NCBI RefSeq assembly: GCF_055900595.2
Contig: NZ_CM148325.1
Strand: one strand, 5' to 3'
DNA: 64,000 nt
Each line of letters starts with the position of its first letter. Positions within the stretch are counted from its first letter, which is position 1. Below, one piece after another: positions 7,876 to 48,559 of the stretch. The translations under genes and the position numbers were made by a program. The notes under the pieces are model-generated. The model saw nothing but the letters and a program-made list of their open reading frames with translations. It did not search any database and was not told the DNA's origin.

Positions 7876-8250
7876 GATGCCCTCCAATATGGTTATTTTT
7901 TATTGTGAATTAAGATAGGTGAGTACGACGTAAAAAGATGTGAAGCAAATCACATCAGTGTAATCGCTTACACTAACATTTATCTTAGTTATGATTTAAG
8001 TGCATGAAAATAATTGAGTTATATCATCATAGATTAAAGGTTGTTATCTGCAATTAAGACTTTACTGAAAAGAAATGTAACAACTGTGAAAGCTGAATAA
8101 TAATATGAAAATATTACAAATATTTGGCTGGTGTGGTTGGTGTAATCGATTTCAGTAGTGATGATAATTTGCGGTAAAACGTGTTGAGGAAGAATGATGT
8201 TATTGTGCGGGCGGTTTTTTGCCGGATGCGGCGTGAACGCCTGTCCACTG
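7876..8250 (-). promoter_or_regulatory. AT-rich galP upstream control region
   Basis: Long AT-rich spacer upstream of galP; the known galP promoter region of E. coli lies here. Individual operator sites not mapped. Confidence 0.4.
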
Positions 8251-19131: not shown

Positions 19132-19506
19132 GAGAATCTTCCTTGAGTAAAGCGTGGGAATATGTCACATGAGGTGAGGAGAAAACAGCCAACAGGTGAG
19201 AATTCAGAATCTATAAAGGGGGAGAGCGAAAAACATCGGCTAAAAAAGTATGTTTTCGAACATTCAATAGATAAATAGAGATATGCATCACAAATACATA
19301 GGCAGATAAAACATTGGTTTTGTGATAAACATAGCAAACACAAACTTGACTTTATAAGTATAAATTTCATGTTGTTGTTATTTAACATTTTATTATTTTG
19401 GTTCATGTTTTTTTTCTTCTCGCGTGCCCAATTGCTTTCATTAAATCGCACGAGTATTTTATTTTTACCGCCGGACGGTACCCTAAAAATAAAATAAGGA
19501 TAATTT

Positions 19507-24861: not shown

Positions 24862-25145
24862 CAATTTATTCCAGTTATTGTGCGGTTATTATTACGCCAG
24901 TCTGGAATAAAGCCTCCTGCAAGAAGGGAAGAAAGTGTGATACAAGTCAGATAATTGTCTTCTTTGACTGGACAATCATTCCTTTTATTCCACGTTTCGC
25001 TTATCCTAGCTGAAGCGTTTCAGTCGATTAAATGTTCGACAATTAACCAATCAGTCGCAGTTTGCGACAGGTAAGGTTTCCCCGGACGATTTGCTGGATT
25101 ACTCTGTCTGGCAAATTTGCTCAGGGAAAACCTTGCAGGAGATCT

Positions 25146-34059: not shown

Positions 34060-34845
34060 TTAATGACCAACGAAATTAGGTTTACGTTTTTCGAGGAAAG
34101 CGTTCATCCCTTCCTGGTAATCTTCGCTGTCATAAACCGCGCGGCGCATCCCCTGAATACGTTCAAATTCATCGGAGTTCATGGTGTGCGCTTCGCCCAG
34201 TACACGCAGTTCTTCTTTGATAACGGCAATGGCTAACGGCGCTTTCTCAGAGATGTGGTGCGCCATTTGTAAGGTGAAATCTTCCAGTTCTTCCACTTCC
34301 ACAACATGGTTGAGGATGCCGACAGCCAGCGCGCGCTGGGCTGTGATTGGCGAAGCGGTAAAAATCAGCTCTTTGACAATGTGGAAGCCCGCGTCGCGGG
34401 TCAGGTTGTGAATGCCGACCAGGTTATACGGGACGCCGAGGTTTACAGGCGTCATTGAGAAGGTTGAGGTACTGGCGGCGATGATCAGATCGGAATTCAT
34501 GATCATTTCAAATGCGCCCCCCCAAACACTACCTTCCACCATCGAAATGATCGGTTTCGGGAATTTTTGGATCATGCGGGTGATTTGACGCAACGGATCA
34601 TCATAGGAGAGCGGATCGCGACCGCCAGACGGCAGTTCGTGAATATCGTGACCTGCGGAGAAGACTTTGGATCCACTCGGCGCGCGCAAAATGATACAGC
34701 GAATTTCCGGCCGGTTGAGATCGCTTAATGCCTGCATAAGATCATCAATAAAGACTTTACTTAAGGCATTAAGTTTTCGGCCATAGTTAAACTCAATGAC
34801 CGCCACTTTGTTGATAGTGACAACGTTCACATACTGATAAGACAT
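34060..34845 (-). CDS. scpB: methylmalonyl-CoA decarboxylase, crotonase fold (261 aa)
   Basis: Track ORF trimmed 14 codons to MSYQYVNVVTINKVAVIEF... Confidence 0.9.
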   Translation of the reverse strand: MSYQYVNVVTINKVAVIEFNYGRKLNALSKVFIDDLMQALSDLNRPEIRCIILRAPSGSKVFSAGHDIHELPSGGRDPLSYDDPLRQITRMIQKFPKPIISMVEGSVWGGAFEMIMNSDLIIAASTSTFSMTPVNLGVPYNLVGIHNLTRDAGFHIVKELIFTASPITAQRALAVGILNHVVEVEELEDFTLQMAHHISEKAPLAIAVIKEELRVLGEAHTMNSDEFERIQGMRRAVYDSEDYQEGMNAFLEKRKPNFVGH

Positions 34846-37988: not shown

Positions 37989-38191
37989 TATTTGCTCCAT
38001 AAAACGCAATCAAAATGAGGGTATTTGCGCTTACGGTGAGCTTTTTACGTGGGTTTGTCGCCAGCAAAAAAAATGCATCCAGACGTCGTTTTTTGCCGCC
38101 TGAGATTTGTCTATTTTGTGATGTGATTCAAGGAATACAAAAAGAACTGGAGGTGATGCCTGGTATGTATTACCAGGCATTATTTGATGGA

Positions 38192-39545: not shown

Positions 39546-40205
39546 ATGACGCAGGATGAATTGAAAAAAGCAGTAGGATGGGCGGCACTTCAGTATGTTC
39601 AGCCCGGCACCATTGTTGGTGTAGGTACAGGTTCCACCGCCGCACACTTTATTGATGCGCTCGGCACGATGAAAGGCCAGATTGAAGGGGCCGTTTCCAG
39701 TTCGGATGCGTCCACTGAAAAACTGAAAAGCCTCGGCATTCACGTTTTTGATCTCAACGAAGTCGACAGCCTTGGCATCTACGTTGATGGCGCAGATGAA
39801 ATCAACGGCCACATGCAAATGATCAAAGGCGGCGGCGCGGCGCTGACCCGTGAAAAAATCATTGCTTCGGTTGCGGAAAAATTTATCTGTATTGCAGACG
39901 CTTCTAAGCAGGTTGATATTCTGGGCAAATTCCCGCTGCCAGTAGAAGTTATCCCGATGGCACGTAGTGCAGTGGCGCGCCAGCTGGTGAAACTGGGCGG
40001 TCGTCCGGAATACCGTCAGGGCGTGGTGACCGATAACGGCAACGTGATCCTCGACGTCCACGGCATGGAAATCCTTGACCCGATAGCGATGGAAAACGCC
40101 ATAAATGCGATTCCGGGCGTGGTGACTGTTGGCTTGTTTGCTAACCGTGGCGCGGACGTTGCGCTGATTGGCACACCTGACGGTGTCAAAACCATTGTGA
40201 AATGA
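39546..40205 (+). CDS. rpiA: ribose-5-phosphate isomerase A (219 aa)
   Basis: Track ORF trimmed 12 codons to [35 protein letters not shown]... Confidence 0.95.
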
Positions 40206-40460
40206 TCTGACGGGGGAACCTCCCCCGTTAAAAAAATTCTCTTCATTAAATTTGGTGACATGTGTCACGTTTTTACCTGGCTATTGTCGATTGCTCTAAA
40301 TAAATCCTCTAATCCAGCATATTCATCCAAGAAAAACCTTTGCGTGATATTTCCTCAACATCGCGACGCAAACGTTCATATTGCCGCAATATTATTTTTT
40401 GATATGTTGAAAGGCGGATGCAAATCCGCACACAACATTTCAAAAGACAGGATTGGGTAA

Positions 40461-41693
40461 ATGGCAAAGGTATCGCTGGAGAAAGACAAGATTAAGTTTC
40501 TGCTGGTAGAAGGCGTGCACCAAAAGGCGCTGGAAAGCCTTCGTGCAGCGGGTTACACCAACATCGAATTTCACAAAGGCGCGCTGGATGATGAACAATT
40601 AAAAGAATCCATCCGCGATGCCCACTTCATCGGCCTGCGATCCCGTACCCATCTGACTGAAGACGTGATCAACGCCGCAGAAAAACTGGTCGCTATTGGC
40701 TGTTTCTGTATCGGAACGAACCAGGTTGATCTGGATGCAGCTGCAAAACGCGGGATCCCGGTATTTAACGCACCGTTCTCTAATACGCGCTCTGTTGCGG
40801 AGCTGGTAATTGGCGAACTTCTGCTGCTATTGCGCGGCGTACCGGAAGCCAACGCTAAAGCGCACCGTGGTGTCTGGAACAAGCTGGCAGCTGGCTCTTT
40901 TGAAGCGCGCGGCAAAAAGCTGGGTATCATCGGCTATGGTCATATTGGTACACAGTTGGGCATTCTGGCTGAATCGCTGGGAATGTATGTTTACTTTTAT
41001 GATATTGAAAACAAACTGCCGCTGGGCAACGCCACTCAGGTACAGCATCTTTCTGATCTGCTGAATATGAGCGATGTGGTGAGTTTGCATGTGCCAGAGA
41101 ATCCGTCTACCAAAAATATGATGGGCGCGAAAGAGATTTCGCTAATGAAGCCCGGCTCGTTGCTGATTAATGCCTCGCGCGGAACGGTGGTGGATATTCC
41201 GGCACTGTGTGATGCGCTGGCGAGCAAACACCTGGCAGGTGCGGCAATCGATGTCTTTCCGACGGAACCGGCGACCAACAGCGATCCGTTTACCTCTCCG
41301 CTGTGCGAGTTCGATAACGTCCTTCTGACGCCACATATTGGCGGTTCGACTCAGGAAGCACAGGAGAATATCGGTCTGGAAGTTGCAGGTAAATTAATCA
41401 AGTACTCTGACAATGGCTCAACGCTCTCTGCGGTGAACTTCCCGGAAGTCTCGCTGCCACTGCATGGTGGGCGTCGTCTGATGCACATCCACGAAAACCG
41501 TCCGGGCGTGTTAACTGCGCTGAACAAAATCTTCGCCGAGCAGGGCGTTAACATCGCTGCACAGTATCTGCAAACCTCAGCGCAGATGGGTTATGTGGTT
41601 ATTGATATTGAAGCTGACGAAGACGTTGCCGAAAAAGCGCTGCAGGCAATGAAAGCTATTCCGGGCACCATTCGCGCCCGTCTGCTGTACTGA
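40461..41693 (+). CDS. serA: D-3-phosphoglycerate dehydrogenase (410 aa)
   Basis: MAKVSLEKDKIKFLLVEGVHQKALESLRAAGYTNIEFHKGALDDEQLKESIRDAHFIGLRSRT... full-length match. Confidence 0.96.
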   Translation: MAKVSLEKDKIKFLLVEGVHQKALESLRAAGYTNIEFHKGALDDEQLKESIRDAHFIGLRSRTHLTEDVINAAEKLVAIGCFCIGTNQVDLDAAAKRGIPVFNAPFSNTRSVAELVIGELLLLLRGVPEANAKAHRGVWNKLAAGSFEARGKKLGIIGYGHIGTQLGILAESLGMYVYFYDIENKLPLGNATQVQHLSDLLNMSDVVSLHVPENPSTKNMMGAKEISLMKPGSLLINASRGTVVDIPALCDALASKHLAGAAIDVFPTEPATNSDPFTSPLCEFDNVLLTPHIGGSTQEAQENIGLEVAGKLIKYSDNGSTLSAVNFPEVSLPLHGGRRLMHIHENRPGVLTALNKIFAEQGVNIAAQYLQTSAQMGYVVIDIEADEDVAEKALQAMKAIPGTIRARLLY

Positions 41694-41756: not shown

Positions 41757-42460
41757 CCCCCAGCTAGGCTGGGGGTTCCGGAAAGCTTTCAGCTTTGAGC
41801 CAGTTATTAAAACCCCTTTTGATTTGTTAAAACACCTTGCGGTCTGGCAACTGCAAGTGTCAAACAAGAAATCAAAAGGGGGTCCCAATGGGGGACGAAA
41901 AGAGCTTAGCGCACACCCGCTGGAACTGTAAATATCACATAGTTTTTGCGCCGAAATACCGAAGACTGGCGTTTTACGGAGAGAAGCGTAGGGCGATAGG
42001 CAGTATTTTGAGAAAGCTGTGTGAGTGGAAAAGCGTACGGATTCTGGAAGCAGAGTGCTGCGCAGATCATATCCATATGCTTGTGGAAATCCCACCCAAA
42101 ATGAGCGTATCCGGCTTTATGGGATATCTGAAAGGGAAAAGCAGTCTGATGCTTTACGAGCAGTTTGGGGATTTGAAATTCAAATACAGAAACAGGGAGT
42201 TCTGGTGCCGAGGGTACTATGTCGATACGGTGGGTAAGAACACGGCGAAGATACAGGACTACATAAAGCACCAGCTTGAAGAGGATAAAATGGGGGAGCA
42301 GTTATCGATTCCATATCCGGGCAGCCCGTTTACGGGCCGTAAGTAACGAAGTTGAATGCAAATGTCAGATCGTATGCGCCTGTTAGGGCGCGGCTGGTAA
42401 CAGAGCCTTACAGGCGCATTTGAAAAACCTCCGGCTATGCCGGAGGATATTTATTATCCC
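41757..42460 (+). mobile_element. IS200-like (IS200/IS605 family) element; boundaries approximate to about 30 bp
   Basis: Left-end palindrome cccccagctaggctggggg, a stem-loop covering the tnpA RBS, a 152-aa Y1/HUH transposase, and right-end hairpins (cctccggctatgccggagg). No terminal inverted repeats, as expected for this family. Confidence 0.75.
41888..42346 (+). CDS. tnpA: IS200-type Y1 (HUH) transposase TnpA (152 aa)
   Basis: Track ORF trimmed to MGDEKSLAHTRWNCKYHIVFAPKYRR...; HUH motif HIHMLV and catalytic-Tyr region conserved. Confidence 0.92.
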   Translation: MGDEKSLAHTRWNCKYHIVFAPKYRRLAFYGEKRRAIGSILRKLCEWKSVRILEAECCADHIHMLVEIPPKMSVSGFMGYLKGKSSLMLYEQFGDLKFKYRNREFWCRGYYVDTVGKNTAKIQDYIKHQLEEDKMGEQLSIPYPGSPFTGRK

Positions 42461-48479: not shown

Positions 48480-48559
48480 AAATTTCTCCTCTGTTGTTTA
48501 TTTGATACCCATCACACTTTCATCTCCCGGTTTTTTCGCCGGGAGATTTTCCTCATTTG

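Follow-up and report, generated by a model that had tools for sequence, protein, structure and literature searches.

The spacer between rpiA and serA carries a short inverted repeat, and the question raised by this locus is whether the repeat serves as the operator of a dimeric regulator and, if so, which protein binds it. A sequence-only reading of the stretch of DNA analyzed here (64,000 nucleotides, referred to below as the window) had described a perfect 14-bp palindrome with half-sites resembling those of CRP, and had considered it a possible operator for a dimeric regulator that was left unnamed. Our analysis identifies the element, with a probability of about 0.9, as the known cAMP-CRP operator of E. 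coli serA (40251-40272), already catalogued and hence not new.

The window is a piece of E. coli chromosome. Of 5426 complete genomes of this species, 5425 match the rpiA-serA region (40100-40560), with identities of 95-99.6% and with rpiA and serA annotated there. The genes around the element run in the order scpA(-), argP(-), rpiA(+), serA(+), as seen from the list of open reading frames and from RefSeq annotation of the E. coli regions that match. The 14-mer GTGACATGTGTCAC (40255-40268) starts 50 bp past the end of rpiA (stop codon at 40205) and ends 193 bp ahead of the serA ATG (40461), in agreement with the original placement after rpiA and about 190 bp upstream of serA. Several features of the surroundings were noted in passing. 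The hairpin at the end of rpiA, ACGGGGGAACCTCCCCCGT, is followed by an A-run and then by TTCTCTTC, rather than by a plain T-run; other Enterobacterales possess an equivalent rpiA hairpin followed by a conserved CTTTTCTT. Downstream of serA, an IS200-like transposase gene (41888-42343, plus strand; Pfam Y1_Tnp, E = 8e-37) lies between serA and fau/ygfA, a gap that in K-12 and in the closest complete genome holds the ibsC toxin gene instead. This gene looks like a strain-specific insertion adjoining serA.

Structure of the element and its match to the CRP motif

The element is not a perfect palindrome, because its central TG is not self-complementary: the reverse complement GTGACACATGTCAC differs from GTGACATGTGTCAC at the two central bases, and a search with GTGACATGTGTCAC gives 0 mismatches on the plus strand and 2 on the minus strand. 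The actual structure of 40255-40268 consists of two 6-bp arms, GTGACA and TGTCAC, with a non-symmetric 2-bp TG between them. Inverted repeats of this 6+2+6 type occur 19 times in the window, compared to 15.6 expected from a naive calculation and 17.4 +/- 3.7 in Markov-1 random sequence; the palindrome as a statistically unusual feature is thereby ruled out. The features of the element that exceed chance are the match to the CRP motif and the conservation, not the inverted repeat as such.

To score CRP sites, we derived a 22-bp weight matrix, made symmetric, from 65 sites of RegulonDB as tabulated by Shimada et al. (2011; Table S4), with serA excluded; it recovered the textbook consensus AAATGTGATCTAGATCACATTT. 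The segment 40251-40272 (TTTGGTGACATGTGTCACGTTT) scored 12.6 bits, rank 10 among the approximately 64,000 positions of the window; at least three quarters of the training sites themselves score lower (75th percentile, 12.1 bits). Ten window positions reached at least 12.6 bits, while 1.6 +/- 1.3 are expected in random sequence. Several of the other top hits coincide with CRP boxes published by Shimada et al. (2011), those of galP, epd, mscS/fbaA, argP/scpA and gcvT (Table 1), which indicates that the matrix works properly.

Aligned with the consensus TGTGA-N6-TCACA, the serA box reads GGTGA-CATGTG-TCACG. Eight of the ten core positions agree, the 6-bp core spacing is correct, and both mismatches fall on the outermost bases, where G and G replace T and A. 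The site is sub-optimal, given G at both outermost consensus positions. The CRP-like character of the half-sites that the sequence-only reading had noticed thus lies in the cores GTGA and TCAC, and the longer arms GTGACA and TGTCAC do not hold as half-sites; the spacing, described as unusual, is the canonical 6 bp. The comparison with regulator consensus sites proposed at that stage accordingly points to CRP, both by matrix score and by core bases. The strict pattern GTGA-N6-TCAC has 5 matches in the window against 0.89 expected, and TGTGA-N6-TCACA with up to two mismatches is not enriched there (32 against 26.8 +/- 5.2).

The scan of the window also yielded a pair of CRP-like sites 44 bp apart (19274-19295 and 19318-19339; 14.2 and 13.6 bits) and a single CRP-like site at 34813-34834 (13.0 bits). 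The spacer of the epd CRP box differs from that of K-12.

Table 1. Coordinates of the serA CRP site, its neighborhood and other strong CRP-matrix hits in the window.
Feature	Coordinates	Strand	Basis or remark
rpiA CDS, upstream neighbor	39546-40205	+	ORF list; RefSeq annotation of matching E. coli regions
rpiA terminator hairpin ACGGGGGAACCTCCCCCGT	40208-40231	+	RNA folding energy -17.1 kcal/mol (z = -3.8), equaled by none of 200 shuffles
Older RegulonDB "CRP site at -80" AAAAATTCTCTTCATTAAATTT	40232-40253		PMC3105977 Table S4; 7.2 bits on CRP matrix
22-bp CRP site, full footprint-length motif TTTGGTGACATGTGTCACGTTT	40251-40272		Matrix 12.6 bits; orthologous site in most Enterobacterales
16-bp CRP box GGTGACATGTGTCACG	40254-40269		Verbatim in PMC3105977 Table S3
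Left half-site core GTGA	40255-40258		Mean 1.79 bits per column, 44 Enterobacterales sequences
6-bp spacer CATGTG, variable among species	40259-40264		Mean 1.07 bits per column
Right half-site core TCAC	40265-40268		Mean 1.87 bits per column, 44 Enterobacterales sequences
Putative serA P2 core promoter: TTGTCG (40284-40289), 18-bp spacer, TCTAAT (40308-40313), start ~40320-40325	40284-40313	+	Own reading of the sequence and the -80 coordinate
Putative serA P1: TTGCCG (40381-40386), N16, TATGTT (40403-40408), start near 40416	40381-40408		Own reading of the sequence
serA CDS, regulated gene	40461-41693	+	ORF list; RefSeq annotation of matching E. coli regions
Strong CRP-matrix hit at known box, galP	7939-7954		
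Strong CRP-matrix hit at known box, epd	24936-24951		
Strong CRP-matrix hit at known box, mscS/fbaA	28920-28935		
Strong CRP-matrix hit at known box, argP/scpA	38117-38132		
Strong CRP-matrix hit at known box, gcvT	48501-48516		

The published CRP site of serA

The element had been put forward as a candidate without an assigned regulator, but the exact 16-mer GGTGACATGTGTCACG is already in print. It is listed as the CRP box of the Genomic SELEX-chip peak serA<rpiA>argP (3.05663 Mb of the K-12 genome), with serA as the target (PMC3105977, Table S3; Shimada et al., 2011); the resolution of the peak is that of the tiling array, and it was assigned to the 16-mer by motif. The main text of the same paper (Table 1) counts serA among the known CRP targets that SELEX recovered. 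The suggested operator for a dimeric regulator can therefore be attributed to CRP itself, on the matrix match, the published box and the conserved cores.

In K-12 JM109 the 16-mer is identical, and there too it lies in the rpiA-serA spacer, equally far from serA, so that the window holds the same object as the K-12 serA P2 CRP site, in another E. coli strain. One flanking base of the site differs, 40270 being C in K-12 and T in the window; with C the site scores 11.4 bits on the matrix, with T 12.6 bits. The window departs from the K-12 spacer at 40270, 40278, 40282, 40313 and 40334-40335.

RegulonDB, as reproduced in Table S4 of PMC3105977, lists CRP as an activator of serA. The table places the site at -80, on AAAAATTCTCTTCATTAAATTT, with a printed flank ending in "ggtgacatgt". 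The conserved 12.6-bit motif starts at the last three bases of this 22-mer. The 2011 entry looks shifted 19 bp upstream of the conserved motif, since AAAAATTCTCTTCATTAAATTT scores 7.2 bits and overlaps the motif with 12.6 bits, and RegulonDB curators may want to check it.

As cited by later papers, Yang, Lin and Newman (2002; Mol Microbiol 43:323) found that CRP and Lrp activate serA. In the in vivo transcriptome study of Li et al. (2021; PMC8085971), serA is argued to behave as Crp-repressed, not activated, and the net sign of the CRP effect on serA in cells is disputed. The Crp ChIP-exo data (PMC5957442) place serA within a set of 699 promoter peaks that includes many non-CRP promoters, and do not localize Crp to the motif.

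Conservation and alternative explanations

Conservation was assessed with a SerA query and one genome per species, which gave 80 loci across Enterobacterales, Vibrionaceae, Pasteurellaceae, Shewanella and others; the 600 nt upstream of each serA were extracted and scanned with the CRP matrix. Among the 46 Enterobacterales species with rpiA upstream of serA, 38 have the GTGA-N6-TCAC cores at the orthologous place, 194-227 bp before the serA ATG (315 bp in one Pantoea), and the orthologous site is usually the best matrix hit within 400 bp upstream of serA. The site is found in Escherichia, Citrobacter, Enterobacter, Kluyvera, Pantoea, Erwinia and Yersinia, as well as in Serratia, Rahnella, Edwardsiella, Proteus, Providencia, Xenorhabdus and Budvicia. 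Degenerate sites occur in Pectobacterium and Brenneria (left half), two Photorhabdus (TCAT), one Erwinia (GTGG) and a Pantoea insect symbiont. The matrix scan of the extracted upstream regions found no CRP site in Vibrio, Pasteurellaceae or Shewanella. Within the species, 5152 of the 5426 complete E. coli genomes match the 34 nt that span the CRP box with an identity of 99% or more.

In a site-anchored alignment of 44 Enterobacterales sequences, the mean information falls from 1.79 and 1.87 bits per column in the two cores to 1.07 in the spacer, 0.34 in the left flank and 0.33 in the right flank. Many species possess better sites than E. coli, and those of Yersinia, Budvicia and Rosenbergiella are nearer the consensus: TTTGGTGATATATATCACATTT, found in Yersinia and Budvicia, scores 17.6 bits, and the Rosenbergiella site 18.4 bits. 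Across 39 species there are 18 different 14-mers, with spacers such as CTTGTG, TATATA and CTTATG, and the E. coli 14-mer GTGACATGTGTCAC is shared only with E. albertii. The sixth arm pair (6-9) is complementary in only 17 of the 39 species, which indicates that selection acts on the CRP cores and not on a longer palindrome. At position 5 of the half-sites, the left and right bases change independently of each other (C/A and T/G combinations), as expected if the site is recognized by a protein and not if it forms an RNA stem. Absence or degeneration in relatives had been named beforehand as evidence against an operator; the cores are largely retained, and for them the outcome favors function, while the palindrome with 6-bp arms is not conserved.

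The SerA protein of E. albertii is 100% identical to that encoded in the window. In the rpiA-serA spacer of E. albertii, the sequences to the left and right of the CRP site have diverged from E. coli, while 27 nt, AAATTTGGTGACATGTGTCACGTTTTT, are identical. E. albertii as the source of the window, suggested by the identical SerA, was rejected on this spacer difference and on the match of the window to E. coli genomes at 98-99.6%.

An inverted repeat could arise by chance and have no function, and the window counts given above agree with such an origin, both for 6+2+6 repeats and for the consensus with up to two mismatches. Yet the cores persist in most of the Enterobacterales species, although the rest of the spacer around them can no longer be recognized as related; over 5100 E. 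coli genomes show almost no variation at the site, and selection of the locus by CRP in vitro has been published (PMC3105977). Conservation across Enterobacterales effectively excludes chance, which we regard as extremely improbable. An operator of another dimeric regulator, such as FNR, a different CRP/FNR-family protein or a GntR-type factor, is only slightly easier to accept and still very improbable. Many helix-turn-helix dimers use short palindromes of this type, and FNR, a member of the same protein family, has the same half-site spacing and dyad geometry as CRP; its site is TTGAT-N4-ATCAA, with T as the discriminating base. In contrast, every orthologue here has GTGA/TCAC, with the CRP-discriminating G at the second core position, and an FNR site is ruled out by these cores. 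Where the orthologues depart from the E. coli sequence, they approach the CRP consensus (TGATATATATCACATTT) and no other known motif, and the protein that selected the locus in SELEX was CRP itself (PMC3105977).

The same letters could also be read as RNA, as a small intrinsic-terminator-like hairpin (stem GUGAC/GUCAC, loop AUGU, followed by GUUUUU) acting as a back-up terminator for rpiA read-through. The element is located downstream of rpiA on the transcribed strand, and a consensus scan classed 40255-40268 together with GTTTTTACCT as terminator-like; shuffled sequences are expected to give 0.3 hits of this kind. However, the hairpin has little stability (-6.4 kcal/mol, z = -1.3), 22 of 200 shuffles reaching an equally good fold, and is missing from the minimum-energy fold of the 95-nt region, and a strong rpiA terminator hairpin is already present 24 bp upstream. 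Its features also vary among species: at least five T in the 8 nt after the stem are found at only 7 of 39 orthologous sites, the 14-mer hairpin averages -3.9 kcal/mol over these 39 sites, six species have a mismatch (C/A, T/T, A/A or T/C) at stem pair 5-10, and even K-12 has GCTTTT after the stem, not GTTTTT. By its weak folding energy and non-conserved U-tract the element fails as a Rho-independent terminator, and this role is improbable as well, if marginally less so than the two preceding explanations. The CRP operator thus remains the preferred reading.

Position relative to the serA promoters and possible mode of action

If -80 is taken as the center of AAAAATTCTCTTCATTAAATTT (40242.5), transcription from the distal promoter P2 would start at 40322-40323, and the center of the CRP motif (40261.5) would therefore lie at -60.5 or -61.5; this start and the position near -61 depend on the coordinate that RegulonDB gives for a site placed elsewhere. 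P2 reportedly starts 136 bp before the serA ATG, in which case the center would be at -63.5. Together the two estimates would place the motif at about -61 to -64 (range -60.5 to -63.5). CRP sites of class I promoters are centered near -61.5, -71.5, -82.5 or -92.5 from the transcription start.

A simple sigma-70 scan of 40150-40480 called no promoter; it is usual for such a scan to miss a weak activator-dependent one. The base at 40313 is T in the window and A in K-12, so that the putative P2 -10 element reads TCTAAT instead of TCTAAA. In the cross-species consensus of the rpiA-serA spacer there is a second conserved island, 40368-40411 (GCAAACGTTCATATTGCCGCAATATTATTTTTTGATATGTTGAA), which probably covers the P1 promoter and the proximal Lrp sites.

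In our reading, a CRP dimer recognizes GTGA and TCAC, 6 bp apart, inside the 22-bp site. From a center about 61 bp upstream of the P2 start, bound CRP would recruit RNA polymerase by contacting its alpha C-terminal domain, in the manner of lac and other class I promoters, and P2 transcription would be raised when cAMP is high. The putative arrangement shares with lac P1, where CRP is centered at -61.5, a single CRP site, the 6-bp core spacing and, by the predicted start, a weak sigma-70 promoter about 61 bp downstream of the center; it differs in the cores, GGTGA/TCACG rather than TGTGA/TCACA, and in the disputed net effect in vivo.

There may be more to the site than simple activation of P2. 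Of the two serA promoters, P2 is said to be the minor, Lrp-repressed one, and the CRP site reportedly lies near the upstream edge of the Lrp-bound region; about 154 bp separate its center from the putative start of P1 further downstream, near 40416. It is conceivable, though we consider it unlikely, that the site is an anciently conserved station at the upstream edge of an Lrp complex driving the main promoter P1, where CRP could modulate, and possibly antagonize, Lrp-dependent activation. If true, this would reconcile the view of CRP as an activator of P2 (Yang et al., 2002; RegulonDB) with the Crp-repressed behavior of serA in vivo (PMC8085971), and would explain the retention of the site across Enterobacterales.

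The identification of the element as the serA CRP operator adds little new, as textbooks already count serA in the regulons of CRP and Lrp and the exact box is already in a published table. Judged by its distribution, the site is ancestral to the Enterobacterales, from Escherichia to Proteus, Yersinia and Budvicia, and with it probably the control of serine biosynthesis by CRP, which is not common to Vibrio or Pasteurellaceae.
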